Below are positions 4,626 through 62,300 of a stretch of DNA of 64,000 nucleotides, piece by piece. Source of the DNA: Amphiscolops sp. MND2022 (taxonomy: Eukaryota); assembly GCA_964187785.1 (NCBI GenBank), contig OZ076420.1, positions 19,034,001-19,098,000 of the forward strand, read 5' to 3'. Position numbers and translations under genes: made by a program. Below the pieces are notes generated by a model that searched no databases, was not told where the DNA came from, and saw only the letters and a list, made by a program, of their open reading frames with translations. Positions within the stretch are counted from its first letter, which is position 1, and each line of letters starts with the position of its first letter.

Positions 4626-4649
4626 GTTACTTACACTCGGTCTTTGTGG

Positions 4650-5158
4650 AAACTGAATAGACTACCGACACTGACCGTAAAGCTTCATGGGCCAAATGTC
4701 GAGGCTACAACTATTAAGTCAAGTCCAATGAGAAAGATCACTTGTTCAACAAGCTTGCAGCAAGTTTGGCCCAAATGAAAACCCAATGCAAAATGCAGAT
4801 TTGCGGTGCTCTCCACATAGAATTTCTGGATTGCGGAGAACGTTCACTGCCCAATTTCACTATACAGATTCGTCTTTACCGATCGCCTAATACCACTATC
4901 ATCCATCTCAAAGGCACCGATGACGAAGCAAAGGCGCACGATGGAAAACTTTTGGCCATTGTCGAGAAGGTTTCGCTTTTTGTGAGAAAGGTTGTAGTAA
5001 CTGACAGTGTTAAATCGTCGGTAGAAAGAGCACTGGTGAAAAGCTATGCAATGTATCCGTATATTGAGAGTTTGAACAAAAGATTCATTATTCAAGCCGG
5101 TCAAAACTGTTTCATAAAAGAAAATGATTTTGGCACCGAGCCAACTCGTTGGCACTGA
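4650..5158 (+). pseudogene. Internal fragment of a Polinton/Maverick major capsid protein (double jelly-roll)
   Basis: GALHIEFLD...IQIRLYRS...IVEKVSLFVRKVVVTDSV...AMYPY...RFIIQAGQ...KENDFGTEPTR matches the GxLHxDxF, IxLxRS, ASLFVRKV, AxYP and FTIPxG motif series of Maverick hexon-like capsids. Confidence 0.75.
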
Positions 5159-26900: not shown

Positions 26901-29900
26901 GCAGAAAAACTAAATTATACCTGTTTCAGAGATGGGACTTATGCAACGGATGACTGTGGACAAAGCATAGCTGACGGCTACAAGCTGTTTTTACTTTTTG
27001 GGTTTGTGATCGTGAAGGCAATCGTTCCTATTGCCTTGACTGCAATCACATTGGTCATTGTTTGCGAAGTAAACAAGTACCAACATAGCTCCAGGAACCA
27101 ATCGTCCCCTACAGCTTTCGTGACCAATAGCTTTTCTGGGTTGAAAAAGATCCAGCTCTTCAAACTGTCTCAAAGTTTTGCAGGTTCATCGAAAAATACT
27201 TGAACTTGCCTCAAAAATTCATCCCCTGTAAGTTTTATTTTTAAAAAAAACCTGAGGGATCTTTTTTGAAATACCATGAGCATAAAAACCAACACGGTAT
27301 AAAAAACGTAGTGCAGACGCTGTCGCAGGCTGCCGCCTGCGATGGCAACATTTACACGATTGACCATACGAAGCCAACCGCCCTACCTGGGACGCTCCCA
27401 TTGTAAACCAAAACTTTCAAACATTTAGTATTATTTTGAACATGTAATATTAATTGATGAAATATATTGTCATTTCTTATGTAAAATACATTTGACAGCA
27501 AGCCATACTGACAGGCAGAAAGGAAACGTGTTCAAATGTTTGCCTGCTCAGTATGGCTAGCTATGCCGTCTACGGTCAATTGGCCAATCAGAGTGCAGTT
27601 TGTAATAGCCATCTTATTACTTATTACGTAACTGTGCTAATAACTATTTAGAATGGACCAAGGCGGCCAACTAACTTTGCGGGCCTTATTGTACTCTAAT
27701 GCTATACTTGATTGGTATTCAGTAATTACAAAAAGGACGAAAGCGGCTATGTGACATAGCCGTCCCAATTCACTGTATTAATTGTCTTGGTGCTAAGCAG
27801 TAAATAAGGCCTGTCATGGCCGGTTAGCACGATGAATACTCAAATGCTGTATACTTGCCATATGAAATTGGTATTCCAGTTAATTAGTGGCTTGAAGATG
27901 CAAATAACCCACCCCATGCAATAAACAGACATATACACTGTTAACATGTAATTGTTGCTCTCTCATATTATGATGGGACTGAATTAGAAAACCCCAACGG
28001 CCATACGCCGAACAGGGCCTTCATGAATTGTTGTGCATGTAAACTGTTGCTTGCATGAATTATACTTGTAAACAATTTGACCCATATGCGGATGAGACTT
28101 GTCGGGCCCTTTGATCTAGCCGCCCGCACAAGTCTAAAATGATGTCATGTTACTATTTATAGTGCTGACGTATCTATTTTTAGTTTGCGTTGCTATTTTT
28201 AGTATCATGACCGTTACAATTTTGCCTGTCATGCCCTCTGGGGTATATATACCCAAGTCGGCCTGACAAAGGTTAATCATAATTTTGCAGCTGCCTGATA
28301 CACTACGCTCATCTTGATTAATCTGAAAATAGAAGTATTTGTCCCCAGGAACAATTCAAATATTTTCTCCTGGAATAACATTTTCAATGCCTTCTACGAG
28401 GAGACAAAAGGCCAAGTCTAGAAAATCTAGAGAATTAGATATGTTGTCCGACTATGGCAACATGGACGTAATGCTGGGTGGCAGAAGTTCCAACTCTATA
28501 GAAAGAGAACTTGATAGCTTGATTAATGTCCCTGAGGGACAACGAGACTTTCAGTCCTTTCCGAACAGAGAAAATTCATCTCAAGAAAATGAGATTAGAG
28601 ACATCGATAGTAGAAATGAACCAGTCAGGGAAAGTAGACTGATAGAGTCTATCAATACACTATCTGGGGAAATGAACGCTAGGATGTCGCGTGAGATGGA
28701 GGCTATGATGGACCTAATGCAATCACAGATTACCAGGGCCATCAGTTCTGCTATAAGCGAGAGAGTCATTCCGGAAATACAGAATATGGTAGAAAATTTA
28801 CCTTTGGGTCAACACGGCGTTGAGCCGGGTACGTCCTTAAATGAGGATGGAATTGGGAATGTATGGAAGAACGCAGATACGAAATTTACAAAGAAGGACT
28901 CAAGGTCCGCTTGTGATCTGAGGGATTACACGGACAATGTTCCTTACATGGTGACAGGAGCTACCGAACTCCAACAGCCGATTCCTGAATTCCTCACAGG
29001 ACGAATTCACTCTCAGCCAGACCTCCAAAGACAAGAATCTACTCATGATACAACTCTGGATACAACTCTGCCAATAGCGGAGCCTGCCCCGGCAGAACAG
29101 CCACAAGATCCCATCAACCGATTGGCAGATGTCCTGGTAAACCTCCAAAATAAACCACACTCGATGACAATTAGACCAGTCACGACGAACCCCATGACAT
29201 TTGACGGCAAAACAGAGAAATTTGAATTGTTTGAAGATTTATTTCATACAATGATAAAGATGCAGCCTGCCATGACTGAACAAATGAAAATAAATCATTT
29301 TCATTCTCTGCTCAGAAAAGGAGCACTGCAAACTTTCCGAAATATAAACTCCATAAACCGTCAAACATTAGCAGACGTATTGGTCATATTCCGCAGAAAG
29401 TACGTCAAACCCGAGTCTCAAGCCACAGCTAAACACAAGTGGCACAGGCTCATCTTTGATCCCAACACGATGAAACTACCCGATTTTCTTGAGGAACTCA
29501 ACCAGGGTGCCGAGAAGGCCTTTGGGGAAAACGCCAAAAGCATGATAGACAGTCTCTTGTATGCTAAATTACCCCCAAAACTCAAAAGATCAGTCAATAT
29601 GGCTCGACTGGAAAACGGGACCTACGAGGAGATTGTGGCACATCTGGAACGGGAACTCGAGTTAAACGCATTAGAAGAATCTGATGACCAACCCATTGCT
29701 ACAATGGCTTCGTCGTCCAACAAATCCCGAAATTTACTATCTAATGGCATTGACACCAACAAAAATAACCAATGCTCATACTGCAAAGCAGAGGACCACT
29801 TCTGGAAAAATTGTCCAAAACTGAAAAAGAAGAAAGAATCAGAGGCCAAAGACGGCAAGAAGCCTCAACGACAAACTTATCCAGAATGTCCCACCTGCAG

Positions 29901-32900
29901 TAAAACCAATCACCCAGCAGAGAAATGTTGGAGTGGCGCTGGTGCCCATCTTCGTCCAAAAAGAAATAGACAGGACTCCACCAAAGACACGGAGCCCTCT
30001 GAAGACGAAGGCACTCGCACCAAGAATGAAAAATCCACAACATCCTCATCAGGCCAATCGAATTCTAAAAAACCTGAATCAAAAAACTAATTTTGCCACG
30101 ACTCCAAATCTCTGACCAAATGTCGATACGACAATATGTCATATCAGACCCAGATAATATCGTTTTCAAGCAATCACAAAAGGACATCACAGGGACCCCA
30201 TCGACTCTCTGGCAGCAGCAGATGGTGGAAGCCTGTACTCAAACTCAATACATTATCCACAGTGACCACCCATATCTATATCGACGTAATAACCTTACTA
30301 AAGACTCAGAAACCCAATTCCGACCCTTACAAACTGTCGAAGACTACAACCCCCAATACTACGACCCCGAGTACGGCAAAGACCCGTACTGGGATGATGA
30401 GTTATATGATAAACACAATTTACAATTTCGGAATGATGACTACCCGCCAACAGACGATGAGGATGACCCTGACATTGTAGACACCATACTGTCCCGGGCA
30501 CTTATCGAACAATGGCAACCAAATTTTGATGCAATCAAAGACCAGCCACATGCAGAAGAGACACAGGCCACACCTGGCCTCCTCGACGAGACAGCCTTCA
30601 TACATGTCCTCGTAACTAAAGAGGGAGAACCAGCGTATATACCACTATCCACAAACCTCGGACTCAAATACAAAAAACGGATGCTATACTTCCCGATGGA
30701 CTTTGGGGAACTAACCATAGACGGCCTCATAGACACTGGAGCTCACTCCAGCGCAATTCCGGAAGCAGACCTCAGGAAAATTCGCCTATTGGCGCCCCAA
30801 TCCATAGTCAAAGAGGGACCTGCCCCGACGTTTCAAATTATGGTCGCAAACGGACAATTGGAAACCCCAAAGAGCACTGTTGAACTCAAGTTCGAAGTCG
30901 GAGATATTGAATTCCATGAAATATTCATAGTAATGGAAAAACTGACTGGCCCTATCATAGGACTAATGTTCCTCCAGAGGAATCACACAGTACTGGACAT
31001 GCGACAAGGCATACTCAATTTCCCATATTTCTCGATGCAACTCAAAACGGCTGACCATAAATACTCTAACGTACTGGAACCAATACTTAACCCAGACGAT
31101 ATCACAATACCACCCAATGACCGCACCTTAGTAGAGATTAAATCCCAAATCTACAATGAAAATACGGTCACAGGGGTGTTGGAACCCAGTGATCTCCTCC
31201 ATGAAGAAGGCGACATCACATTCTGTGCCGCAATAGTCACATTGATTAATGGAAACGTCAACGTTCATATCAACAACTTTACAGACCAACCGTACAAGCT
31301 TAAAAAAGGACGACACATAGCAAACTTTTCCGTACTAACACCGGAACAGATGAAACACGTCAAACCAATTGACCCGGTGTCCACATGGCATCTCTTCAAT
31401 GAAAACGAAGAGGATGCGATCTACTATGTCAGTAGTCTACTCAAGGCTAATCGGAACAATGACCAATATGAACAACACTGGTTTCCTACGCCAGAAAACC
31501 CAGGGGACGAAGATTCCCATACTCCTATCCAACGACGAATCCTTCAAGAATTACGAAACCTCCAAGAAGCTGAACAATTGAATCCACAGAATGATGATGA
31601 GTCACGCCGCAAATTCCTTGGCAATTTCGACTGGAAAGACTCCATGCTGCAACAACATGAAATCAAAAAGATCGAATCGCTTTTAGTCGAATACCATGAC
31701 ATATTCGCACGACACAGATTTGACATCGGAATGAATGAAGAATTCACGGTCAAACTGACTCCTAAGGACGATTCGCCTGCTTACAGCCAAAGTCTCCCAA
31801 CTCCAGTCAATTTAAAAGAGGACATACTTGTCGAACTGGCCCTCTTACACAAATATGGCATAATAACTACACTGCCATTTTCGAAATACGCCAGTCCCAT
31901 ATTCGCACAGAAAAAGCCGAATGGGAAGCTAAGACTACTAGTCGACCTGAGGAAAATTAATAACTTCATTTCGGATGACTATATCAACAATAATCATCCG
32001 GTTAGTACCCTAACGGACGCTGCACAACATATGGCAGGAAAGAAAATATTCTGTAAACTTGATTGCTCACAGGCATATCACTGCCTGCCAATGGCGGACC
32101 AAAGGTCCGTTGAGATGCTCGCGTTCAACTTTGCAAGCCGCACCTTTGCGTATAGACGACTTGCCCAGGGCCTTAGCAGGGCATTATCAGCATTTTCAAG
32201 TTTTATGAGGGAATATCTCGATAAAGTTATCAAAGCTGATCAATGTGCCCAATATGTCGATGACATTGGCATAGCCGCCAATGATGCGGATCATCTCATA
32301 AAAAATTTGAAAGCAACCTTTGAGTGCATAAGGCATGCTGGCCTTAAACTGACAATGCACAAATGCCACTTCGGGGCAACGGAAATCGATTTCTTGGGGA
32401 GAACAATTACTCCGGAGGGAGTCAAACCACAAAAGGAGCGAATAACCAACTTCCTAGAAAAAACCAAATTTGCCAAATCTAAAAAGGCTCTACAAAGATA
32501 TCTTGGTTTCCTAAATTATTACAGGAACTATATCCCAAGATTATCTGAAAAATTAGCCCCTTTCTTTCAACTCCTCAAAAAAGACGAAAAAGTCCTGGTG
32601 ACCACATAACTCATACAACAGTTCAATGAAATCAATCGGGACCTCGACAAATGTAGCCAATTGGCCCTGAAGCAACCTTTGCCAAACAAGCAACTGGTCC
32701 TGATGACTGACGCTAGTTTCACAGCGGCCGGCTACGCCATACTTACCGAGGACGACCCAAACCAGAAATATTCATCTGTCAAAAAATCATACGCTCCAAT
32801 TGCATATGGCTCAAAAACGTTTACGCCATCGCAACTCAAAATGTCCATATACGCTAAGGAATTCTTAGCGATTTACTACGCATTCAAAGAATTTGGACAT

Positions 32901-35900
32901 ATTTTCTGGGGAGCCCCTAAACCGATTACCATCCTCACGGACAACAAATCGGTCACGAGATTCTTCCAGACGAAGATAATCCCTCCAACACTCTGGAATG
33001 CATGTGACAATGTAATACAATTCAATTTTGTCATAGCACATATACCAGGGAAAAACAACACAGCCGCCGACTACTTATCTCGCATGGAAATGGACCCCAG
33101 AGAGAAACTAGTCCTTAAAATCCGCGAAGACATAGAGACTAAGCCCATCGAGGTCAATGTCCAATCGGCAGGCGTTGCTGAAGAGGAACAGGTTTTCTTC
33201 ACGGAGCAAGATGATGAGACAGAAGCTCAAATTTGGAGCGTAAAAAACAAAACCGAACCAACCCAATCGACCAAGAAGGCTTTATTCAAATTGACGCAAT
33301 ATCCGAAAACATTGTAGATGAGATTACAAACTTTACCCAAAAAATGCGCAGAACGAATCAAATTTTACTTGAACAATCCAAAGACCCTATACTGCGCCAA
33401 CTCAAAGCCAAAATTCAGAACGAAGACTGTTCTGAAGAACTACTCCAGCAAGACATCCGATACAAACACTACCTTAACAACTTGGACCGAATAGTCCTTA
33501 AAGACGAAATAGTCACACGACAATATTATGATGAAACTGGGCAAGTCAAGTATCACCAAGTTCTCTTACCAAAACACCTTTTGACAGAATTGTTACAGGC
33601 CTTACACGGAACGGCGCACAAACACCCGGGTATATCGAAGATGTTACAAGAAATACGACAAAAATACTACTACCCCGGTATAGCAAAACACGTTAAAAAA
33701 TGGGTAGAAGGATGTGTAACTTGCGCAAAAGATAAACGGGTCCCAAACAACACGATAACGCCCGAATTGCTTAACTTGCCAGAATGGGACCTTGGACCAG
33801 AGGACGCAATGCAAATCGATTTACTCCCAAACTTGCCAACAAGCGGAGGTTACCAAACAGTGATGACAGCAATAGATGTCTTCTCAAGATATCTGTTTGC
33901 CTACCCGCTAGTTGAGGCAACAGCCTCTAACACGGCAAAGGTCTTAATAGACATCATGACAAAGCACTCATATTTGCCAACTACGATCATCACCGACAAA
34001 GGAACCGCTTTTACATCAAAAATTATTGCAGAGATAACGCAAGTATTGGGAATAACCCTAAAATGCGCAACGACTAAACACCCACAAACAATTGGCAAAC
34101 TCGAGAGAACTCACGCCTCATTGAAAACAAATTTGAAAATGGCCTCAGGGGAATATCGCCGTCAATGGCACAAATATTTGCCACTAGCAGTGCTCAATTA
34201 TAACACAACTTATCATTCCAGCATCGGTTGTGAACCGAGCAAGGTCTTTCACGGAAGAATTCCCTATAATGTTCTTGATCATAAACTCGGAAATAATCCT
34301 AATAAGGATTTCCTCCCGACTACTGAATTTGCTGAAGAATTACAACAGAGAACAAAAGTTCTCATTGACAAAACGAAGCATAACATTATGCAATCCTACT
34401 TGAAATATAAAGAATACTATGACCGAAAGGCCAAAGCAGCTCCTCTCAGTGAACAAGATTTTTGCTTTATCCTACAACCTAAAGCGGACAATCAAGGATC
34501 AAAAATACCATTCAGAGAATATCGCTGGATCGGTCCTTATCGAATTGAAAAGGTATTACCTAATGACAATTACATTGTCCGCCGGTTAAATACGAATAAA
34601 ACACAGAGATTACACCGAATTCGCCTGAAAAAGTTTGTTCCTAATACGATTTTAGAGGACAAATATGCCAAAGAGAAATTGCAACCAGATGATGAAATAA
34701 TCATACCACAAGATGATTTATACACCATCTCATGGGAAGCAGATTTTGACTACCATCTCTTCGAGCCGAGACGAGACGATAATACCGACGAAGAATCGCA
34801 AGCACCAGACAGCGATGCTGGTGTCACGACTAGTGATTACGTCATTTATGACAACGCTGATGACAACACGGCAAGGCCGAGGACGGCCACCAGCCGAGAC
34901 GGCACAATCACACGAAACGCAAATGACGTCACCGAACTGAATGAACGAACCAAAAAGAATGAAAATGAAGCGGGACCGAGTACGGCCGCTAGCCGAGACG
35001 CACCTATAATGCATGATGAACATGACGTTAGCGAGAATGCTGCGCGAGACGAACAAAGCAGCGAAATAGAAAGGCCGAGAACGGCCACTAGCCGAAATAG
35101 CCACAATGGTGGTAATACACCACCTAGTTCAGAAAAGAACGTGAATGACGTCACAAATGAATTAGAAGGCGAGAAAAACTCTCCTAACGAGGGGGATGAT
35201 ATTACCGTGCCCGGAATATCGAATGAAAAAGCAAATGAAAAAACTGATGAAAACTCTAGCCCTAGAGGGGGGAAATACAATCTTCGACCTAACCCCAACC
35301 CCAACTATACTGATGAATACAGATACTAGTCAGAAATGTTAAATTATGTCCCTATTTATTTTACTGCCCGAGATGGCATGTTTTTACTGGGACTACTCTG
35401 ACTTCTTTGACTCAAAAGAAACCTACTATATAAATACTAAAACAAGAAACAGAACGGAAATTTACAAATAGAAAAGTCTAAAATGGCGAATGTACACTAT
35501 GTACATTTAACTTTTAGAGCTTCCTTCTCGCAGTTCTTGGACTGTCTTTGAGATCTCACTAGCAGGAATGTCGCCAAAATAGGCCAATTTTTGAGCTTGC
35601 CCAGCAGCCCAATTTATCTTTCGCCCAGCAGAAGTTGAGACAGAGGATGAACGTGAAGCCGTGCTAACGCCAACCACGGGAGTTCCTTTCAAATTCTTGA
35701 AGGCAGCAGTAAGGGTCTTTAGGAAATTCGCCTGCCCAAAGACGTCGACGTGAACCCAAGGGTCTCCAGCAAGCTGTCCGGAACTAAATTGTCCCTCCAA
35801 TTCCTTGTAGTTAGCTAGAGCGGCTTCAGTGGTACAAACGGAAATCGCACTTGGGCAATTTGTCAAGTAGGATTGGGCGGGCAGTATTACCGCAGAAAGA

Positions 35901-38900
35901 CGGCATCGGGAATTGGAGGTATCGACATCCTGGAATTTAACGGCAGGAAGGGTTTGATGTCCCTCAGTTATGCAAAGGCAGCACAACTGAAACAAGCGAA
36001 AAAGCCTAGCACGACTTCGGAACTCAGTAATTGGAATAAGGAGATGTAACACGTCAGCAACAGTCACTGGGGAAGACTTAATGGAAGGGTAAGATTTGCG
36101 AAAGTAGTCCACAAACTCGAAATATTCATCCCGACAGTCATTACGGGAGGACTCGTCCACCCAGCCGCGAAGTCGAAAGCTGTCATACAAAGCGTTGAAG
36201 CAAAAGGATACTTGCTCAAGAGGTAATGTCAATAACACATGAGGATCGAAGCTACCCATACCGCGGACAATATTTGCGGTGAAGTGAATATCCCGAAGTA
36301 AAGACTCCAACAGAGTGACTATATATGCCCGGGCTTCAGTCCCAAAATTCTCCTGCTCCTTGGAGACCAACTCAGCCTGATTAGCGGGTACAGGATTTGA
36401 TCCCCTAGATTTCTCCAGTTTCGCTTGACAAACCAGATCAAGGTCACAGGTGAGTTTGAGGCGATGCAAGAAATCACGGATTGATAATTGCCTCAGATCG
36501 TCAGGGCACAATTGCAAGAGACCATTCCAGTCTGTATCGCTTGGGATACATTTGGGCAAGATGGCGCGGTGGCACAACCGGCGGATGAATCTGCAATATT
36601 GGCCATAAACGAAGAGGGTTGCATCCCGCCGTCCAGAGAGACTTCGTTCGAAACACTTGGCATCCAAACAAATTTAGAGTCAGATGCAAATCACCAGAAT
36701 CTACCAAATCCCCCACCCCATCACAAATGTGGTTATGCTTAAAGCCGTGATCGGCACATCAGCTGGTAGGTCAACTACGCTGGCGGTTCAAATAAAAATG
36801 AAGAAAAACTAACAATCGCGGACCAGCAAGGAGAGGAATTCAAGCTTGATGGTGAAGAAGTCATCTAGAATAATCTCCCATTCCAGGCTCTGAGGCTTAA
36901 AAGGAAATTTACCTCATAAGGATTACATCTTCCGAGATTACAGTGTGGTGTAGTTACCAATGCTGATCAACTAGAAAACGGCTAATAGCTACCTTATTCT
37001 TAGCTCCTTGCATCTTCTGGGTTGGGGCTATACTGGTCAGGTAGTCCTTGATAGCTTTCCAGCTTCTAACGAGCTCGGAACAGACGGCAGGGATCTTCTT
37101 GAGTTCCACATCACATGCTGTTATGGCCTACGGAACACAATTAAATAAGGAGAATTGCCTTTACTATTATGAAAGTGACCAGGAAGGAGTATCGACACCA
37201 GGTCAACGTCTAATGAAAAATTATGTTGGAAAATAAATCACCTTGCGAAGTTCAGGACTCTGTAGAGCCCAAGATTGACTGAGCCCGCCTCGGAGGTAGA
37301 CGACTAGAAACTTCAGTTGGGGAAAATGTCAATTCGACCAAAGATGTAGCCAGTCTGCAGTGCTGTGGGGTGCATTAACTCAGGAAGGGAGAAAACCTCG
37401 AAGCGGAACGGGTACTGAATCCCACGGTTGAACAGCCCACATGTCTCCAAAGCTCTGAAGACCATGGAAGAACACCCGGAAACACTGACAAGATTGGGCT
37501 TTGAGGACACAACTGACAGCAGACATGAGATAGCTGTTAAGTAACAGCCCGGATAGGGGTCAGCTTGATTGTGACGATGAAGTTCAACCCGCACGAGTGA
37601 GTCATCTCTCCAGAAACGGACGGACTGCACCGGTAGATGCCCTCTGTCGTGAACTCAATCGAGTACATCTTAGTAGCCATGATGTGACTGGAGATATCTG
37701 CGAGACCTCTCATGAAAACGTGATGGAAGACGTTCTAAAAACAAAACACAAATGTACAAAAGGGACGTCTTAGCCAGAGGCCACGTTGGATCTTACTATT
37801 AATTCTATAGACGAAGATTCTACTTACAGTAAGAGTTGCAGGTCCCCAATCGAATGAGGAAAACAAGGCTTGGTGGTTGGTGAACATGCCCACTCGAGTC
37901 CATAAGTTTCGCAACAGGGAAATATTGCCATCTTGCGGTACGAAAGTCCCAATCAATGAGATTAAGGTACTGGTCCGAAGGTCATCAGGGTTGGTTAGTC
38001 CTCCAATACTAGCCATGTAGTCATCGTAGAACGGGAAACGATCTCCTGCCTCGATCAGGGGGGCATCAATGAATAATGGTTTTTCTCGCTCTAGCTCAAT
38101 TGGAGTAAGGACGTAACCATCTTTCCCTCTGACATAGTGCGTAACAACCCCAGTAACTTCATCAGTCTCTTGCAGATGGGTGAACCTCCACTTTTGATCT
38201 TTCCGGAGATGTCCTACTGTCTTATAGTGTCTTAGAATCTCCCTGGCGCCTTTTGAGAAAATAGAGACATTAGTTTTACATAGCATGCAGTAAAACTTGA
38301 ATTTATTGTGGACGGGATCGACGGGGCCAGATACGAAGGTGCGGGTCCATTTGATGCCCTTGTGGACTTTCCGGGCCCTTGGAGTTAAAGACAAAGGATC
38401 AGATTCACTCAGGCAATCTGTGCCAGAACTGGACCCCAACTGGTAAGGATCTTCATCTGTATTGAAGGCTCCACTAGTGTAACCATCTGAGACGTGTCCC
38501 TCAAAGTTACTCTCATCTCCTGAACTGTCAGTGAACGGCCGTGCTGGAGTTGCACACCGCTTGGGCATAGGCCTTTTCTTATCCTGGGGAGCTCCCGAGT
38601 AGCATGGAGCAACAAAGATTTCATCATGTGGTAGGACGAAAGTACAGATTCGTCGGAAACGGTCCTCAGGACAGCGTGCATCTCATCTGCGGTAAGAGCG
38701 ATGACTGGTTGATCTCTGGGTAGTTCAATGGGGCGAGTGTCCTGAAAATACTTCTTGATGACTAGTTTGCCCTTTGCGGAAAGTTGCCTATCGGCGCCGT
38801 CTAATTTGGCTCGATACTGCTCCTGTTCGGAATCACTGTGCCCTGAGTCTTCATGGAATCCTTCTTATAGATCAGGGAAAGTAGTAGAATCCAAAATGAC

Positions 38901-41900
38901 ATTCGGAGCGACTGGTGGGTAAACGGCAACGCCAGAGCTGTCCATTAAATCTTCCATATCTGTGGTGTCGCCATATAATCCTGGTACTTCCTCTGTAGAT
39001 TCAGTCTCTTTGTTACTGCCGGCCCCTGTCTCAATGTTTGTCAGATCATTCCTCACGGCAATGGGCTCTGACACAGAGGCTTTTAGAAAGGGGATGCTGA
39101 CAGTGACCATCTGGGCAGTAACACCTGGCTGACTTGGCAGTGGACTTATGATCTCAGCCTCGGGTTGGGACATTACGTCAAGGGTCCTTTCAATAAATGC
39201 GGTTACACTTTCTTCAGTAGACCTGCTGCCTTCGGACACTTGGGGAGAAGGCCTGATAAGGCCTGATAACTCAACGGTCTCTGGAGTCTCAGTTTCATCG
39301 TTCCCGACAACTGGAGCGGTAGTGGGTTCTGGCGAATTTTCCTCTGTTGTCATACCTAAATGAAAAGAGATAAATACATGCGGACAACTTCCTGAATATG
39401 ACTCCATCCAAACCGCAGTAAAATCTTCCGGAAGTGAAAAGGAATAAAACATAACGTCTAAATTGCATCGACGAAAATGGACAGGAAGTGCATGAACGAG
39501 ATGAAAAGCCTTGATCAAGCTTATTTCCGTTCAAAAATTAAAAGACCAGATAGCTTACCTGCAGTTGTTGGCCAATTGGGAACTGAGGGAGTATGACGTG
39601 AAGATCTTTGACGTATTGAAATTCTACTGCAAACCAGGCTAGAAGATCCTGAGGGACCAAATGTCCTGATTGGGCAAATCTTTGGCAGTGAAGAGGGAGG
39701 AGTAGGTCTTGATGACGACGAAAAGGAAGATCTGGACGAATCCGGCAGCTGGACAGCGATCCTGAATGAGGGGATGAGAGGCAGTATAAAATTCAAACAA
39801 TGACTCTGTACTAAATAAACAATGGATAAATACGAATGTAAGTAATGTAATGAATTGACAATTGAAGAATTGAAAATGATTGCGATTGCAGTAGCAAAGT
39901 TGGAGTTCGTGGCAAACTGGATTTGATGTCAAATATTTTTACAATTATGGGAATTATTTTGTGGATGGAATCTGCCAGAGAAATCCACATTAGTTATATT
40001 TCGAAACATGCATTTTCATTATTTTATTACCTTAGTTATTTCATTATTTTTAGTTATTTTATTATTTCCTTATTTGGATTATTTTTTTTAATTCCGCCAT
40101 ATTGAAAAGCGGACTGAGTGGGCAATTCCCATTGGCTGTCGCGGCGATGCGCCGCGCGTGGCCTTAAAACTTCATCACCCTCTCTTGAAATTCTCAAGTG
40201 GATATCAAGTGGAGATAAACACTAGACGAAGTCCTTGAAGGTTCTTTGCCGACTTAGGCAAGCTGAAGTTGATCGTCGGTCAACAAAGCAGAAAGCGGTC
40301 CATATCAAAGAATATCTTGGAAAGCTTAGTCAGCGAAACATGATGCGGGAAACGAAAGACCGGGAAAATGTGAAGCAAAACCATCGAGAAACTGAGAAAT
40401 GAAAACCGCCATTTGCTTCCTAACTTCCAAACTAAACAGTTGCTCTACTCAAACCGAATTAAAATTGTCCTATCGCATTCAAAATTGCAAAAAAGATAAT
40501 AAAAGATAGATTTATGGCTCAACGATTTCCTGAAGACTTCATCGGCGCAGCGCCCGAGGGCATAGATATCATCTGCCTGTCCAGCGACGAAGAGGAGGGA
40601 ATGTGTGACCTAAGCATGACTTCGGTGCTAGACCTTCAACTGTCATCGGAGGACGAAGAAGAAATAGATGACGAAATCATGATGATGGCCCAGTGTGTCG
40701 AGATGGAATTATCATCACCCATCCCAGTGCCTGGTCCATCCACAGCGCTGAAAATTAGAAACGAGGCCCCCCGATATAACCCACCAAGGTACGGGACCTC
40801 CGGGGCGAGTTTTGCAACAAGGCTTACTCTTGACCAATCCTTTTTCTCATTAGGAAAAGGAAACGGCCCAATACGGCGAGACGACCGAGTGCGCAATAAT
40901 CACCCTATCAAGCTGTGTAGGGAAATCGTTCCCATGGTGGACACTCCCATGTCGCCCCCACCAGAAGAGAAAGGACCAACTTACGACACCTACTCAGCGG
41001 ACGGTCAGGGCGAGATTACCCAGCAGTCATTGGACGCAGTTGCAAACCATTTCCAAGGAATGGAGATTGAGACGAACAACCCTATGGCAAATTACTCAGA
41101 TTGCGTGATATGTGGGAAATCTACATTACAAATCCAGAGTGAAGCTGTCACAGACTACTTGCGCAAGACGGCCATTTTGGGAGAATCGGCAGATCAACTA
41201 GAAGCGCGCAAAAGAGCCTTTTTGGAAGGAATGCAAGTGGGCACTTTCTTATTGCTACCAGGGGGAGTGTCGCAGGCTGCCGCCTGCGATGGCAACATTT
41301 ACACGATTGACCATACGAAGCCAATCGCCCTACCTGGGACGCTCCCATTGTAAACCAAAACTTTCAAACATTTAGTATTATTTTGAACATGTAATATTAA
41401 TTGATGAATTATATTGTTATTTCTTATGTAAAATACATTTGACAGCAAGCCATACTGACAGGCAGAAAGGAAACGTGTTCAAATGTTTGCCTGCTCAGTA
41501 TGGCTAGCTATGCCGTCTACGGTCAATTGGCCAATCAGAGTGCAGTTTGTAATAGCCATCTTATTACTTATTACGTAACTGTGCTAATAACTATTTAGAA
41601 TGGACCAAGGCGGCCAACTAACTTTGCCGGCCTTATTGTACTCTAATGCTATACTTGATTGGTATTCAGTAATTACAAAAAGGACGAAAGCGGCTATGTG
41701 ACATAGCCGTCCCAATTCACTGTATTAATTGTCTTGGTGCTAAGCAGTAAATAAGGCCTGTCATGGCCGGTTAGCACGATGAATACTCAAATGCTGTATA
41801 CTTGCCATATGAAATTGGTATTCCAGTTAATTAGTGGCTTGAAGATGCAAATAACCCACCCCATGCAATAAACAGACATATACACTGTTAACATGTAATT

Positions 41901-44900
41901 GTTGCTCTCTCATATTATGATGGGACTGAATTAGAAAACCCCAACGGCCATACGCCGAACAGGGCCTTCATGAATTGTTGTGCATGTAAACTGTTGCTTG
42001 CATGAATTATACTTGTAAACAATTTGACCCATATGCGGATGAGACTTGTCGGGCCCTTTGATCTAGCCGCCCGCACAAGTCTAAAATGATGTCATGTTAC
42101 TATTTATAGTGCTGACGTATCTATTTTTAGTTTGCGTTGCTATTTTTAGTATCATGACCGTTACAATTTTGCCTGTCATGCCCTCTGGGGTATATATACC
42201 CAAGTCGGCCTGACAAAGGTTAATCATAATTTTGCAGCTGCCTGATACACTACGCTCATCTTGATTAATCTGAAAATAGAAGTATTTGTCCCCAGGAACA
42301 ATTCAAATATTTTCTCCTGGAATAACATTTTCAATGCCTTCTACGAGGAGACAAAAGGCCAAGTCTAGAAAATCTAGAGAATTAGATATGTTGTCCGACT
42401 ATGGCAACATGGACGTAATGCTAGGTGGCAGAAGTTCCAACTCTATAGAAAGAGAACTTGATAGCTTGATTAATGTCCCTGAGGGACAACGAGACTTTCA
42501 GTCCTTTCCGAACAGAGAAAATTCATCTCAAGAAAATGAGATTAGAGACATCGATAGTAGAAATGAACCAGTCAGGGAAAGTAGACTGATAGAGTCTATC
42601 AATACACTATCTGGGGAAATGAACGCTAGGATGTCGCGTGAGATGGAGGCTATGATGGACCTAATGCAATCACAGATTACCAGGGCCATCAGTTCTGCTA
42701 TAAGCGAGAGAGTCATTCCGGAAATACAGAATATGGTAGAAAATTTATCTTTGGGTCAACACGGCGTTGAGCCGGGTACGTCCTTAAATGAGGATGGAAT
42801 TGGGAATGTATGGAAGAACGCAAATACGAAATTTACAAAGAAGGACTCAAGGTCCGCTTGTGATCTGAGGGATTACACGGACAATGTTCCTTACAGACGC
42901 AATGATATAAAATTGAACGAGAAGATCAGAAAAATACTAGACTTAGAGGATAGCGTCCTAATTTACTACCACTTATTACGAAAGTAGTTCCAGCATATCA
43001 TAGCTATGGTTGCACACCCAGTTAGAAAAATTCTCAAGATAAAAACAAAATGATCTACTTGAAAAAGCAAAAAATCCTCAGAAAAAAGAATAGCGGACAA
43101 ACGGTAGCCATTGTAAAAAACGCTTCAATTGGAAACTTGATGACTACCCAAAAGTGTTCCGGACATCGAAAGGTAAAAAGTATTTTAAGAAGGCGGCCAC
43201 AAGTATGGCAATAAAAAACTGTACACTATAGAAATCAGCATTACTGCTGAATCCACCGGCAGAAATGGCTTACATGTTTTAGCAATTAAGGGATTGATCA
43301 ATGGTGGATCAAACAAGACGGCAGCGTCTCAAGTCGGCGCCCCTCTTAGGACTCAAAAAGCGCAACGTTTTAAAAGTGTGCTTAGGTCATTTTCGAGTAA
43401 AATTTATCATTGGAGTACCAAACAAGTGACAGTTAGATAGTACTAAGTTACCTTAAACAAATGCTTATAGAAATGTTTCAGTTCGCTGGTCTCCGCAACC
43501 TCGAAAAGCGGAACCTCGACTTCTTTTTTAGTGAAACGCAGCGTTGGATATAACGCGAAACAGTCGTGTATACCGCTCGAGGGTACACCATTCTAGGGTT
43601 TTGTTCAGTTTTTCCCGGTAGGTCTCTAAGATGGCAACTGAATGCATTGCGAGTACCGCAACCTCGAAACGTTGAATCCACTGATCCCAATGGTGGGGGC
43701 TTTTCTACGTCTTGGCAGTAATCGCCTAATCCAGATAAAGGTGGATTAGGGTCTTCGTTTGATGCTCGCAGCGCCATGTTAAAGGTTGCTCGAGACAGTA
43801 AGAAACAAGACGGGAACGTCTAAAGTCGGCGCTATATCTAAGGCTCAAAAAGCGCAAAGTTTTCTAAATATGCTCAGGACGTATTCATGAAAAGATTTGA
43901 AAACAAAGTGTGCCTTTCATGTTCGATATGACTGGAAAATCACTGTTTTCCGACTGGGAACAAATTAAAATTTGAAAATTTTTTTGAAATTTTTTTTTTT
44001 AAAAAATTCGAAAATGTCGCATAGTGCCGAAAAATGAAAAGGGGGGGCCCTTTGGGATTCATTAACATACATTCTGTTGCAAAGTATCAAAAAAATCGAA
44101 GGGGGGACTCTTTTGAGACCTTAAAAAATTTTCGAAAAAAAATTCGCACAGTGCCGAAAAAAATTGAAAGGGGGGAGGGACCCTTTGGTCTCTTCCGGTT
44201 TTGTAGGTTACGTAAAAAAGGTAAAAAATGAAAGGGGGACCCTTTGCACTAAGTTTCCATTGGCCTGACTTGGCCTGAGTAGTCTTATAAGTTTCTGTAA
44301 AAAGTGGTACATACGCGATGAGCTCTGTGGTCTGACGAAAAAAAAAGAAAAAAAACTAGCCACTGTAATAGTCGGGCTTTTTTCCTTAAAGGAAAAGGCG
44401 CCGACTAAAAAGAGTAGTGTGTAACTATGAATTAAGGCGCATTAAGGTGCGAATGACGCTTCTTTCTATTTTGGCACTTCAGTTCGATGTGACAATTACG
44501 GGTTGTTTACCAAAATCAGATAAGTGACATATTTATAACTTTTTCACACTCTATCACACATGAAGGAGGCAAAACGAGAGCGCAGGCAATAAAGAATGAC
44601 CAGGAACGTTCCTGCTTTGCAAAACTGCTTCGAAACCAGTGGAATTTGAGGTGATGTTAAAAAGAATAACGGGAGTTTGAATGAATACTCAGAATGAAAG
44701 AACATGGGATGCTTTTGGTGACAAAAACCGAGACCGTAAGAAATTTACAGCGTATCTACAAACCACACTTTTTCAAATTATATCATTCCAAGTTGCCTTT
44801 TTCTGCTATCAGAATCAAAAACAAACAAAAAACTTTCTTTTGTGCAGTTTATTGTTTTCGGCCTGCTTTCCCCAGCACAATAGATCCTATTTTTACAATT

Positions 44901-47269: not shown

Positions 47270-50200
47270 GTTTTTTTTATTGTCACTGAGGACATAACAC
47301 CTCTACTCGGAATGGATTGGATGAAGAAATTCAAACTAACGATCGGAAGAATACAATTGGCCGACAACAGCCAATCAGAACGTGAGAAAGTATTCAACAA
47401 ATTTCCGGACCTGTTCGAAAATAACGAAACGATAAAAGACGCCGAAATAAACATTCAATTAAAGCCGGGACATTATCCGGTAAAACAAAAAGCTAGACCG
47501 GTACCACTACATCTACAAAAAGGACGAGAACTGGAAAGACTGATAAAATCCGGACATTTAGAAAAAATCAATAACGTAGATGAAGATTGCTTTGTTTCAC
47601 CAGTAGTTATAACAGTAAAAAGCGACAAATCGGTGAAAATAGCATTGGATTCGAGAAAATTGAATGACAGCTGTATTAAAATGAGACCCCACATGCCGAA
47701 TATGGAAGAACTGTTAAACCAAATTTCGGTAGAAATAACACGCGACCGAACACTACAATTATTCATGTCCAAAATAGACCTGGTTTACGCTTACGGCCAT
47801 ATGAAACTATCGGAAGAAACAAGCCGACAATGCGTATTTGCACTAACCGGAGGAAATTTCAGCGGATACTACCGATTCAAAGAAGGGTTTTACGGACTCG
47901 CCGATATACCCACAATACTCCAAGAAAAAATCGACCGAACACTCGAATATTGCACACCGGCATGGTTAGACGACATAATTGTAGTAACACGAGGAAGCAA
48001 ACAAGATCACGAAAAGAAACTATTTGACGTATTAAACAAATTAGAGAAAGCCGGATACCGGGCAAGTAAAAGAAAGTCTGAATTCTTTATAAACCAAACA
48101 AAATGGTTGGGACACGAAATCGACGAAAACGGAATTAAACCGAACGAAGAAAAAGTGGAGGCAATACTACGGCTGAAACCACCGGAGAATACAAAAGAAT
48201 TAAAATCATTTCTCGGAGCAATACAATACATGGCAAAATTCTTACCGAAGCTTTCGGAGAGAACTGATAAAATGAGAAAACTACTGAAAAAGAATGAACC
48301 ATGGATCTGGAAAGAAGAACAACAAAAAGATTTCGAAAAGATAAAACAAATGTTAACCGAAGGACCATGCCTAGCACACTACGCAAAAGATAAAGAAAAC
48401 ATAGTGACAACGGATGCTAGCACAACCGGCCTCGGAATAACATTATGGCAGAAACAACACGACGGGAACACAAAACCGATAGCATTCGGTAGCAGATATT
48501 TGAACGACACCGAAAAGAAATATTCAATATTCGAATTGGAATTATTAGCAGTTGTTTGGGGTTTAGAAAAATTCCGATTTTACCTTTACGGAAAGACAGT
48601 ACACCTGTATACAGTCTACCATCAAGCGCTAGAACCATTAATTAAACGGAACCGGTGTAATAAACAATACAGCGCGAGATTAACACGGTGGTTAGAACGA
48701 CTAACGCACTTCGACATATCAATTCAACATATCTTTGGTAGCAATTTGAAATTTACAGATTACTTGAGTAGAAATCCGGTAGGGGGAGCCACGCCAGAAG
48801 AAAATTACGAAGAAGAATACGTAATTAACATATTAACCGAACACGCGGAACTGAACGTGAAATACGGACCAATATTCGCCGACCAATCAGAACACACCGA
48901 AAACAGAACAACATTACATAACCACAAAACCGAGACACAAAATGAGCGCAAAGAGAACCAATCACAAACGAATAGAATATTCGAGAACAAAAAACGTGAA
49001 CAAAATCGAACAAAACAAAATAACCACATCCGGGCAGTCCGATATTAGCACTCTAAAAACCAGCAGCAAATCAATTATTGAAATCAACGACAAAATGGAC
49101 CGAGAAAATTTCTATCATTGGGGTGCAACCCGAGAAATTATGGATATAATTCGACGACGAAATAAAAGCCCGGAGACAAGAAGGCTAGTAGACAAAAGAA
49201 TTGCGCTGTCGAAACCGGGTACCCTGAGACGCCGGTACGATCACCAAAGCCAACGAACGATATTCGCATCATCCCGACCGAACAAAAGGAGCAGAGAGGA
49301 AATCTCGGATATCGATGCCGAACTAATGAGACGGCAAACAGGCTAGGTGGAGGCTATCAACCACTGCAAGAAGAAACCGAAAATAATCCGGAAGAAGGAG
49401 AAACTGAGCAAGAACTGGAAGATACGGAAGAAGATAGCGTTATAATGCGCGGAGATAATCTACCGATTGTAAACCTATCCAAATACAATACGGAAGGCAA
49501 AGAAGCCAAATACATACAAATCAACCACATTGTGGGAAACATGACGGCAAACAAGAAAATAACCGAAGACAATATCAAAAAAGCGGAGTTCGAATTCATG
49601 CTGGATTTAAAGACACTAATTTCAAAGACCGCAATAGATCCGGAATTAACCCGGGTCAGAACAAGCATGAGACGACAAGATCGAGAAACCGCACCAGACG
49701 GATACAAACCGGTGTTGGAAAAGCTATCTATTCGGTGGGGCCTTGTATTCGTCGATGACCAGATAGTGATACCAATCGACTTGAGAAGAAGATTGCTAGA
49801 CGTCTTACACTTCGGCCACTCCGGAAGGACAAAAATGGAGACCGAAGCCAAAATCTTCTGGTGGCCGGAGAAGAAAAATGACATTGAAACAAAAGTGAAA
49901 GACTGCACCGCCTGCCTTGCATCAGGAAAATGTTTAAAATATCAACTACCGAAAAAACTTTTCGGAAAATTAGAAAAACTAACCGAACCCGGACAGGAAT
50001 TACAAATCGATTTTACGGGAAAACTACACAATAAAAACATCCACGGAGATGTACAAATACTGATCGCCGTAGATAGATTTAGTAGATGGCCAACCGTAAA
50101 AATTTGTAAAACCTCGGAGACAAAAGAAGTAATACAATTTTTATCAACCAACTTTAATTTATACGGAATACCAGAAAAAATATCAGATAAAGGGGGCGCC

Positions 50201-51262
50201 TTTATCTCAAAAGAATACCGTGAATTTTGTAAAAACCGAAACATAGAAATTGAATACTGCACACCCCGAATTCATACGGGAAACGGAACAGTAGAACGAG
50301 CAATCCAAACATTGAAAAACCTGGTAATAGCAAATATGGAAGACGGAGAAAATCTAACCGAAAGTGTATACCGAGCATTACGAGTAATGCGGTTTACCGT
50401 ACACACGGGGTTAAAGAAAACACCTTTCGAATTACACCACGGAAGAAAACCGAGAACCGAACTAACAAATATCGTAATAGACGGTAAAACATATTTATCT
50501 GATTGGTCAGAACTTTCCGTTTTAGCACCAACACGGCCGAAAATCCCGATATATGTTGGCCGTGACGCAGATGGCGAAATCACGAATCACATCGTGATGG
50601 CACGCACAAAAGCGGAAGAGAAGCAAACAGCCGAAGGAATGAAATCACCGAAAAAGAAAAATTCGGTTAGCTACCCTTTTCAATTTGTAGAAAAGAATCA
50701 TAATAAAAAATCACTTGAAGGAAAATTCCAAAACAAAATCCAAACCGCGATAAGCGGAACCGAAAATACTGTGAAAACAGACACCGGAAAAATAATAAGC
50801 CGAAAGTTTATTTCGGGCCCACTATTTCAGACCGAGAAGAAATCAAGGCGGGAACAAATACCGCTACCAGAAAATGAAATCGAGCCGAAGAACAGACACT
50901 GTCTACGGGGGCTGGACGGAAAATACGGCCGCTGGGATGAAATCTTACTAGACATACTCAACGGCAAACTAAAAAGTGTGCAAAACCGTAGAAAGACGGA
51001 GACCGACACCGAAGAAGAAGACGATGAAGATGACGAAGAAATGCCGGAAACAACGGAAAGAGAGACGTATGACACCTCAGAACGAAACGGCTCATACGTC
51101 CCTATACGAACAAATCCGGAGGACGATGCTCTGCAACTCCGCACTGACGGAGAAATACCGGGTGAGAATAAGAGCAATAACATAATTCGGCGCTCTAACC
51201 GAAATATAGTTAAACCGAACAGATACGGTAGTGTACCATACACCGGAAATTTCTGGGGATAA
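47270..51262 (+). pseudogene. pol: Pol remnant (protease end, RT, RNase H, integrase) with at least two frameshifts
   Basis: RT AWLDDII, RNase H VTTDAS/ELELLAV, integrase LHFGHSG...CTAC, LQIDFTG, SDKG, NGTVER. Spread over ORFs 47261-49048, 48942-49346 and 49445-51262. Confidence 0.9.
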
Positions 51263-59394: not shown

Positions 59395-62300
59395 GTGAGC
59401 GGTAACTCGATCGCTATTGATAAACGCGTGGCCACCGAACTGATGGCGGTGCCCCATACAGGTTCACAATCGTGGGTCACGAGAGATGGTTCGCGTTTTT
59501 TAGACGACATGTCTGACGAAGTCACTATCGAACAACAGCGAAAAGAGGAATTGGCCGCTATGGCTCCTCCCTCAGAGAACTCCAGTGTTTCTGAAAATTC
59601 GCGTCGAACCGAGCAGTGGGTCGACGAAACTTGCCGCGAAAGAGCCAATGAAGTGGAAGAGGGCTGGCCCAATTCGAATGCAACCGATGAATTGGCGGCT
59701 GAGGAAGGGTGCTCGCGCGCACCCCCGGCTGGAGAGACACAACTTGGCTCACAGACCGACATGGAGCAGGACCTCACTTATGTGGGAGGCATGAGTTACG
59801 CGAGACAGCGAGGACTCGGGACCACTCGAGGACCTACCGGGGTCTGTGCCTACGGGAAGCACAAGAAGGTGCGACCACCCATACTACAGGTAGGCGAGCC
59901 ACGTCAAGAGGTATCCCGTGTCAGGAGTATGACAGGCTCTTTGGCCTCGTCGCAACGGTCTTCAGTATACAAGGCAGCGCTATTGGATGCCCAAGCCGAA
60001 ACCCAACGGGCCCTGGCAGGTCTGGCCAGCACTCGTGCTGAATGCAATGAGCAATATCTTGCCATCGTGGAGAACATTAAAGTGATGCAGACGACGATGC
60101 GCGAGGGCCTGCAAGTCAGCGATCAATTGCGTACCGCGCAGAATGTGCAAAATGCTCGAGTGGACAAATTGGGTCACCGGATATGAGAGATGAATGACAT
60201 GTTGATGGCTCGCGAGTTGCGCGTGGAAACGCAGATCAACGACTTAAGCAATCAGATGCACACGGTACTCAATGCCATTGATGTCATGAGGCGTGAAAGG
60301 TCACTCCCGCGGCAGCCCAGTGCAAGTGGAGGCGTGCGGAGTGGAGGTCCAGTCCGTATCTCGGAGCCGACGTGCCCGAGCCAGGTAGTGAAATCGGAAC
60401 TGCCGAGCGCGCTGAAGCCTAGCACCTCCAGGCCGGCAGTGCCTGCGCCCCGGAAGGATGAAGGAGTAGCCGGAAATTTGGTGATAGCCACGCCTGAGGC
60501 AGAGCGCAAGCCTGCACGAGTGCAGATGAGGGGACATCACGACTCAGCAGAATCATCGATGCCTTCTGCAATCCAGAGCACCACCCGAGATCAAGGCGTG
60601 GACCCGATGTCGACCATCTATCTTAATTCTTCGGTTGAAGTCGACCTATCCAACACCAAGGCAACCCTAGGCTCTCAAACCGAGGGAGCAACGTTTGCAA
60701 CTGCCCCTATTTCGATGTCAGGACCAGACTCCCTATACTTGACCGCAGACTTGTCAGCCGATCATGGACTGCCCTCGGGCACTCCCTGTGCTAGCAGCAC
60801 TCGTAAAAAGGACGAAATCGCTGACCTGTCCATACAGGCCACTCTTGATAGTCATGACGGGACGCGCGCGGGGGAGGCTAAGGTCGAAGAAGGAGAAGCC
60901 ATATCCCCTGAGCAGCTGAGATTCACGGCCGCCATATCAAAGGCGATGTCAAAAGAGTTGGCGCCCTTACTCGCCGGCAGAGACTTGGCTCAGGCGAGAC
61001 CCAATGTATATCGCGGCTCCAAAGACGGATCCATTGATGGGTGGATCCTTATTATGCAGAGAGACCTGAAGAGAACGCAAACCAAGGTCTCAGCCGAGGA
61101 CCAGGCCTGGAGCATCATCGGTCACCTTGAAGGTGAAGCCCGCAACTACATCGTCAACAAAGCGGAATCCGAACGTGACACCCCCGAGAAGGTGTTCGAA
61201 TTGTTATCCAGCCGCTTTGGCGCTGGAGGAAATCGTATGCAAGTACGACAAGCTTTCCAGAGCCGCATTCTACATGAGAAAGAAGACTGGATGCAGTATT
61301 TAGACGCTCTAGAGGGTCTTAGAAGTCAAGGATTCCCGCAAAAGACAATCACTACCAAGCGCTATGAAATCCTCCAGCGCTTCATGGAAGGCGTACGAGA
61401 CCCAGCGCTGAGGCGGGAGCTTGCCATAGTGTATGCCTCGGAAGTCTTCCTGACCGAGCCACCTACGGTGGAATCCCTTCGCTTCACCACCCGCCAATTG
61501 CAGCGCAATCGCCCCAAACCCAACCAATTCCCTCAACCCTATGACCCCAAACTAGCAATGAGGTCTAGACCTCATCCCTTCGCGCCGCTACCTCCCAACA
61601 AGATGGTATTACCACAAGGAGTAATGCCTCCCCCACCTGCGAGTAATGCCCCGCCAAATCAGGCAGCAGCGCAGCCTGCGGCACGCCTACCCGTTGGCGC
61701 GTGCTTTAATTGCGGCCAAGCTGGGCATTTTGCCCGAGACTGTCCCACCCGCGACCAAACTCGCAAACCAGTGGCAGCTCCCGAGCCAGAAGGCGTGAAA
61801 GTCACTGCTGAAGACGTAACTGATGGCGTGTTGGAGAATTATCCAGGCATTCATCAGTGTGCGCACTGTGGAGTCTATGACCATGTGGATGTCCCCTGTG
61901 GTGAGCATTCTCAAGCCCCAAGGCCTAATGATGAATTGGCCTAAAATCGATAGGCAGAGGTGGAATCCGCTGGTGTGGTCGCCCACACGGTACCCCTGGA
62001 AGATGATCGCGTGTTAATGCTGCACCCAGCGGAGCCCCCAGCGTTTCACCCCCCACTGATAGTTACATGCGGAACAAAGCAGATTCAGACGTGCTTGGAG
62101 CCCACCACGTTCGATCCACAAGGGAGAACGTTGATCTCGATTCATCTGATGCTGGCAGCCGAGCAGGTGCGTAGACCAATGCTAACCTTGGCGAAACTCT
62201 GGGTTGAGCTATCTGTCCTCTATAACCGGATGGAGTTGCCCCGCCCAAAACAGTGGCACGTCCCTGGAGAGTCGGAGACCCTGACTACATACTCGCCAGT

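Follow-up and report, generated by a model that had tools for sequence, protein, structure and literature searches.

A conserved accessory gene with a phospho-SIM-like motif spans the polypurine tract and enters U3 in a Ty3/Gypsy element of Amphiscolops

The last gene of a 15.6 kb Ty3/Gypsy element (27321-42895), lying in the 64,000-nucleotide stretch of Amphiscolops sp. MND2022 DNA analysed here (the window), is, on sequence evidence, a real, old and strongly conserved accessory gene of a large element family. This ORF occupies 40514..41353 on the plus strand and codes for 279 aa from its first ATG, or for 289 aa when counted from an ATT at 40484. The initial annotation had seen in it a genuine accessory gene running over the polypurine tract (PPT) and into U3 and carrying tandem SIM-like motifs: the gene, its overlap with the PPT and U3 and one conserved phospho-SIM-like motif stand, but the tandem is not supported. 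Likewise, the frame that had been delimited is real, but the conserved coding frame starts 10 codons earlier, at the ATT. Its basic features were found as described: 40514-41353 translates without internal stop, the two quoted motifs are present (IDIICLSSDEEE at aa 17-28 and VLDLQLSSEDEEEIDD at aa 38-53), the middle is rich in proline (15 Pro within aa 71-190), CVIC is located at aa 197-200, the purine run at 41260-41267 falls in the P-G-G-V codons, and the ORF ends in U3, 86 nt into the 3' LTR.

The assignment of the element to Ty3/Gypsy is based on two TG...CA LTRs, a target-site duplication, a PBS and a PPT, together with a pol gene in which Pfam matches follow the order protease-RT-RNase H-integrase, a dUTPase being inserted between protease and RT. 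Both LTRs measure 1628 bp (5' LTR, 27321..28948; 3' LTR, 41268..42895; plus strand), are 99.57% identical and are flanked on either side by the duplication GACGC; the initial 86 nt of the 3' LTR code for the last 28 residues of the ORF, C258 included. The gag frame (28387..30090, plus strand), which has a DUF1759-like Pfam match below the cut-off, opens with an ATG within the 5' LTR and crosses the PBS (from 28949), and the PPT (41260..41267, plus strand; purine run AGGGGGAG) lies within the ORF, so that both primer sites are coding. In the window copy, pol (30078..35329, plus strand) is disrupted, with a stop following the RT frame and with RNase H and integrase in separate frames; though recent, it has suffered damage in pol and in an antisense gene, with the accessory ORF intact. 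The first 187 gag codons are contained in the LTR (28387-28948, repeated at 42334-42895), and the 3' LTR copy of them therefore runs into the flanking DNA as a 217-aa ORF (42334-42987). Copies in tandem or nested, with a common LTR, were observed in L121-L122-L139, L131-L132 and L090. Besides this element, the window holds, at 47-51 kb (47312-51262), retroelement ORFs for RT/RNase H and integrase, further retroelement ORFs at 59443-61944, among which a gag-like protein with a zinc knuckle (60190-61944), and, at 1-2809, long inverted repeats, 84-97% complementary, around some 2.8 kb, possibly a non-autonomous DNA transposon.

The reality of the accessory gene was evaluated from its copies. In its own genome (1.07 Gb), at least 140 matches to the ORF were retrieved at 58-100% identity, this count being a lower bound as 139 of 7378 candidates were scored, and further queries brought up other subfamilies, with about 140 matches each, the most distant sharing about 30% identity with the window protein. 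On these comparisons, the ORF layout is kept by hundreds of copies in the genome, belonging to clades as distant as about 30% identity. Intact ORFs were found at 66 of 80 distinct loci; the stop codon is positioned 86 or 89 nt into the LTR at 68/80 loci, the remaining 12 being damaged or missed by the LTR-junction pattern, and the LTR junction falls in the identical codon phase in all 82 copies in which it was located, out of 85 examined. In terms of selection, dN/dS amounts to 0.04-0.25 in 7 of 11 subfamily pairs (dS is saturated in the other 4), reflecting purifying and not positive selection, and the SIM segment accumulated no nonsynonymous change versus 3 (pair A-B) and 4 (pair E-K) synonymous ones. 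The many genomic matches, combined with such dN/dS values, indicate that the ORF is more than a chance frame. Database searches yielded 98 homologues and, at E<=0.001, 481 representatives, with no named protein among the homologues displayed with source data. One homologue cluster (P0180, 32 members) has no match in the own genome at E<=1e-60 and thus probably originates from another genome. No Pfam family corresponds to the ORF, the ESM Atlas returned no usable match for it, and the best hit of a PDB sequence search has an E of 1.3.

Translation seems to begin ahead of the first ATG, with a likely ATT start and a 10-codon basic N-terminal extension in the conserved frame (40484..40513, plus strand). 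More precisely, an I-A-K-K block is present in 85 of 96 distinct full-length frames, 5-13 codons ahead of the first Met, a residue that one of these copies has lost; the first codon of the block is ATT in 62 cases and ATA in 23, and every one of them has A at -3 and G at +4. When 26 distinct contexts are compared, differences in codons +4 to +9 amount to 0.43/0.36/0.54 according to codon position, versus 0.71/0.69/0.66 upstream, codons 0 to +3 being fixed by the search pattern, which recovered 28 of 35 loci. An in-frame stop can be as near as 3 codons upstream of the block. An extension acquired through an in-frame splice or an upstream Met was ruled out, since 6 of 28 copies contain neither AG nor Met between the upstream stop and the block, an upstream Met being found in 1/28. 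The simplest reading is that initiation likely takes place at AUU or AUA (40484 in the window, giving 289 aa), with perhaps leaky scanning onward to the ATG at 40514 as an additional start. The free Ala-Lys-Lys at the N-terminus may represent a binding motif, or simply a favourable start context. A parallel is offered by ORF I of rice tungro bacilliform virus, also an AUU-started ORF of a reverse-transcribing element, for which the available text reports an efficiency of about 10% (PMC5902531), whereas that virus is a plant pararetrovirus and the ORF concerned is its first one, involves ribosome shunting and codes for an unrelated protein.

The conserved motif of the N-terminal region (aa 17-28; 40562..40597, plus strand) consists of a SIM-a core with a Ser/acidic tail. 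Phospho-SIM proteins include PML, Daxx and PIAS, as well as the viral IE2. As in these proteins, a hydrophobic core is followed by Ser and acidic residues, and the window sequence IICLSSD satisfies the SIM-a consensus, the SIM-a, -b and -r patterns being taken as defined in the part of PMC3631770 available; unlike a homology, the likeness is confined to this short motif. A set of 27 homologues at <70% identity, drawn from 111 candidates, was scanned over the first 110 residues of each and compared with shuffled sequences. SIM-a was found in 19/27 (1.2 expected by shuffling), SIM-r in 11/27 (1.2 expected) and any SIM class in 24/27 (2.4 expected), the other 3 showing none, and a stricter pattern of our own was matched in 13/27 versus 1.1 expected; in the controls, the rest of the protein matched in 1/27 and the Ser/acid-rich blocks of the antisense protein in 0/24. 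Since SIM-a occurs in 19/27 homologues against 1.2 by shuffling, the first motif is conserved beyond composition, with the reservation that the 27 homologues are related and that these counts are not independent events. Conservation among homologues, fixed beforehand as one of the points on which the SIM reading could fail, thereby holds for this motif. The second motif (aa 38-53; 40625..40672, plus strand) is an acidic tract and no conserved SIM: its VLDLQLSSE fits none of SIM-a, -b or -r, its core is lost beyond the closest subfamilies, and tandem SIMs are not supported.

As regards a multi-SIM poly-SUMO reader of the RNF4 type, SIM-a and SIM-r co-occur in 6/27 homologues, but this SIM-r begins a predicted helix (in a weak model). 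One clade without the SIM-a core fits SIM-r (DSDIEVI type) some 30 residues downstream; this loss of SIM-a accompanied by a better SIM-r is suggestive, but concerns a single clade and a single event, and the SIM-r concerned may not adopt a strand, since the matching alignment position opens the predicted helix of other clades. Residues 1-47 have no predicted secondary structure (pLDDT 51-56) and look disordered, as a SIM requires. The SIM consensus is short, and acidic-hydrophobic motifs occur in activation domains too; SUMO binding by the protein is nevertheless predicted with reasonable confidence. The helix after the SIM resembles an inverted ubiquitin-binding motif, a loose pattern found in 11/27. 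A conserved SUMOylation site was also considered and rejected, psi-K-x-E being present in just 6/27. As for the partner, the host encodes SUMO in a two-exon gene (L150:3990-4181 and about 4630-4720) to which the nearest named sequences come from acoels (83% and 80%), making an acoel host likely; polyubiquitin and NEDD8-like genes were noted in L141-L148. In Drosophila, piRNA-guided transposon silencing needs SUMO, according to the available part of 10.1101/533091, and a role of SUMO in silencing within the present host is assumed by analogy.

Further downstream, an [ST]-P-x-S-P motif (aa 143-149; 40940..40960, plus strand), composed of predicted proline-directed phosphosites, is invariant (27/27). 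The CVIC motif is a CxxC (C197, C200; 41102..41113, plus strand) that reads CxxCG in 24/27 homologues and supplies candidate Zn ligands together with C135, H179 and C258; these five residues are conserved at 0.81-0.95 over 135 alignment rows, the C258 codon lying in U3. The Cys/His-rich C-terminal domain is, from the alignment, conserved, and a Zn site is plausible. The structural models contribute less: the full-length one has a pLDDT of 62.9 and a pTM of 0.31, that of the C-terminal 177 aa a pLDDT of 63.6 and a pTM of 0.38, and the confident part of both is restricted to a helix pair at about aa 204-242, so that the Zn candidates are conserved in sequence and the models around them are of low confidence. 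An acidic amphipathic helix is also predicted at aa 48-66 (40655..40711, plus strand; pLDDT about 80). With these weak query models, fold searches of the PDB and of viral libraries gave nothing at E<=0.001, the best VIA match having a Z of 5.3 over 46 residues, a generic hairpin. No transmembrane segment was detected in the 27 homologues (top 19-residue hydropathy, 0.49-1.52), by which an env-like ORF3 was ruled out. Two other candidates were discarded, namely an LxCxE (Rb-binding) motif, found in 0/27, and a Fbw7-type degron, whose pattern calls for an acidic residue at +4 that the homologues do not maintain.

At the 3' end of the gene, synonymous sites have diverged less over the PPT/U3 part (pS 0.09-0.61) than elsewhere in the ORF, and dN (0-0.45) is below dS in the U3 part. 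In one clade (L132, L134, L138), the tract before the 3' LTR comprises just 4-5 purines per 12 nt, the ORF frame and S-Q-A-A being kept and the LTR pairs being 99.9-100% identical.

Head-to-head with the accessory ORF, an antisense three-exon gene (35507..39452, minus strand) is encountered, with about 600+170+390 codons in intact copies and a C2H2-like finger; its exon 1 is disrupted in the window copy, and its GT-AG junctions are conserved across subfamilies. An intact version of about 1150 codons was seen in L094 (2093-4000, 1516-2028, 2-1141). The protein, observed in every clade seen, has a disordered acidic N-terminus, the C2H2-like finger and two more conserved exons. Its frames gave a single, sub-threshold C2H2 match in Pfam, a PDB sequence search with exon 1 gave none, and exon 3 had no usable match in the ESM Atlas. 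The two divergent genes are separated by a non-coding spacer of about 1 kb (39453..40483) with short conserved blocks, those kept across subfamilies (39420-39510 and 39895-40230) being candidate promoter elements; the short blocks resemble ETS, YY1, CCAAT and forkhead sites. The spacer is likely an internal two-way promoter. A conserved CAG(TT) (40437..40441, plus strand), 44 nt ahead of the ATT in the window and about 20-53 nt ahead of it among copies, may be an initiator or a 3' splice site; as it is devoid of the T-rich tract found at the antisense acceptors, an internal promoter is favoured.

The distribution of both genes was also assessed independently of the ORF, in 20 of 150 integrase matches picked by eye and absent from the prior ORF lists. 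The ORF was found in 16 of these 20 copies and the antisense gene in 19; in 3 copies that have the antisense gene, no ORF was detected over a distance of 10 kb. In trees of 17 elements, the deep ORF clades agree with the integrase clades, and the ORF branches are many times longer than the RT branches, with the motifs kept; such fast divergence would fit a host-facing factor, as expected for one. The window element itself seems to be a mosaic, its ORF and U3 being closest to subfamily B (81%) and its gag-pol to subfamily D (88%), a reading which rests on nearest-subfamily identity and trees. In the same line, subfamily A is placed beside B by the ORF tree and beside D by the antisense tree, pointing to shallow reassortment.

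Several known systems are worth comparing. Nef is a membrane-associated immune modulator. The likeness to HIV-1 nef is one of position only, taken from the available part of PMC11076291, with an ORF over the PPT and U3, whereas the present gene belongs to a Gypsy element and has no sequence match in solved structures and no fold match (weak models). CERV of the C. elegans element Cer1 is described, in the text available (PMC10309623), as a nuclear accessory protein of which a Cys loop and a Ser-Pro phosphosite are needed for genomic RNA export. It is, like the protein studied here, a non-env accessory protein of an animal Ty3/Gypsy element with a Cys cluster and a Ser-Pro phosphosite, but it has 517 aa and a spliced mRNA with gag exons, in contrast with the 289 aa, the PPT/U3 location, the SIM consensus and the likely AUU start found here. 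In the plant Retand, Grande and RIRE2 elements, the long stretch between pol and the 3' LTR holds additional ORFs that are conserved, frequently antisense, and to which the available passages assign no known function (PMC7264820; PMC11963269); the extended 3' region with an antisense gene is common to both, whereas in the present element the additional genes have no Pfam match in place of the TRP28 domains, the antisense gene has introns and a divergent sense gene enters the LTR. Finally, LTR elements of bdelloid rotifers, as far as covered by the available text (PMC5408684), are animal elements with a dUTPase in pol and a third ORF as well, their varied ORF3s being separate expression units, but none of the types listed there (env-like, GDSL, DEDDy, coiled-coil, transmembrane) suits the accessory ORF. 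By the tests run, the ORF is placed in none of these systems. In the literature searched, no transposon-encoded SIM protein and no AUU-started LTR retrotransposon gene came up, nor any description of the element family, an earlier unannotated Repbase/Dfam entry being possible. Additional ORFs are already known, but the protein family, the likely AUU start and the SIM are apparently new in that literature.

As a tentative proposal, to which somewhat less than an even chance is given, the protein could be a nuclear adaptor, regulated by phosphorylation and able to bind SUMO, that dampens SUMO-dependent silencing and keeps the element expressed; once SUMO binding is granted, the chance of a counter-silencing role would be a little over half. 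According to this model, the protein would be translated at low level from AUU/AUA, on a transcript of the ORF's own. Phosphorylation of the Ser-Ser-acidic tail, which is of the CK2 type, would strengthen SUMO binding, and the phospho-SIM of this low-abundance nuclear protein would bind SUMOylated chromatin or silencing factors. Proline-directed phosphorylation would act as a switch, the Zn-bound Cys/His C-terminal domain would give a second contact, and repression would in the end be relieved at the element's LTR. SUMO binding would equally suit activation, export or integration.

Among the alternatives, an LTR transactivator modelled on foamy-virus Tas or HTLV Tax, with the acidic N-terminus as activation domain and the Cys/His domain recognising U3 or a factor on U3, is unlikely but comes closest to the proposed adaptor. 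Residues 1-70 count 20 Asp/Glu and 1 Lys/Arg and include the predicted amphipathic helix, as would suit an activation domain, and, in the mosaic element of the window, ORF and U3 segregate together. This co-segregation is accounted for by linkage alone, since the ORF adjoins U3; moreover, the C-terminal domain lacks a basic character (6 K/R and 7 D/E in aa 191-250), and short motifs are seldom preserved exactly in activation domains that have diverged to 30% identity. Slightly less probable still, a Rev/CERV-like factor would export or stabilise unspliced genomic RNA under the control of proline-directed phosphorylation, in agreement with the pairing of the invariant [ST]PxSP with conserved cysteines, as in CERV, and with the possible 3' splice site ahead of the ORF. 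Against it, a sense-strand splice donor is not established, and CERV shares exons with gag, is far longer at 517 aa and comes with no mention of SUMO in the available text (PMC10309623).

An improbable option is that the protein works together with the antisense protein or integrase, or regulates one of them, for instance when target sites are chosen; the SIM would then dock their complex on SUMOylated chromatin. Both accessory genes indeed stand head-to-head and co-occur in the elements examined, and the deep clades of both agree with integrase, but they reassort at shallow depth, which argues against a tightly co-adapted pair. The least probable view, in our estimate quite remote, reduces the SIM-like motif to a mere CK2-type acidic patch and C-terminal conservation partly to DNA signals (PPT, attachment site). 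It would explain the reduced synonymous divergence in the PPT/U3 part and the clade that retains Y-x-S-S-D/E with the hydrophobic core lost; it is at odds with the aliphatic core retained in 19/27 homologues, with dN below dS in the U3 part and with the clade in which the purine tract is degraded and the frame and S-Q-A-A persist.

Returning to the SUMO-binding adaptor, a function is known for few of the accessory proteins that animal LTR retrotransposons encode. Given the central place of SUMO in transposon silencing, an element protein binding SUMO would be a direct case of counter-defence in animals. The family also constitutes a natural experiment on triple coding, a single stretch of DNA combining the plus-strand primer site and the LTR end with codons of a conserved protein; its purine-poor version belongs to a recently active clade. 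In a broader and rather doubtful picture, this would be a complex Gypsy lineage with a two-gene cassette, in which an AUU-started, phospho-switched SUMO decoy encoded over the PPT and U3 disarms SUMO-dependent silencing in trans, beside a spliced antisense zinc-finger gene pointing the other way. If true, the SUMO decoy could explain the thousands of recent copies of the element in an early-branching animal.
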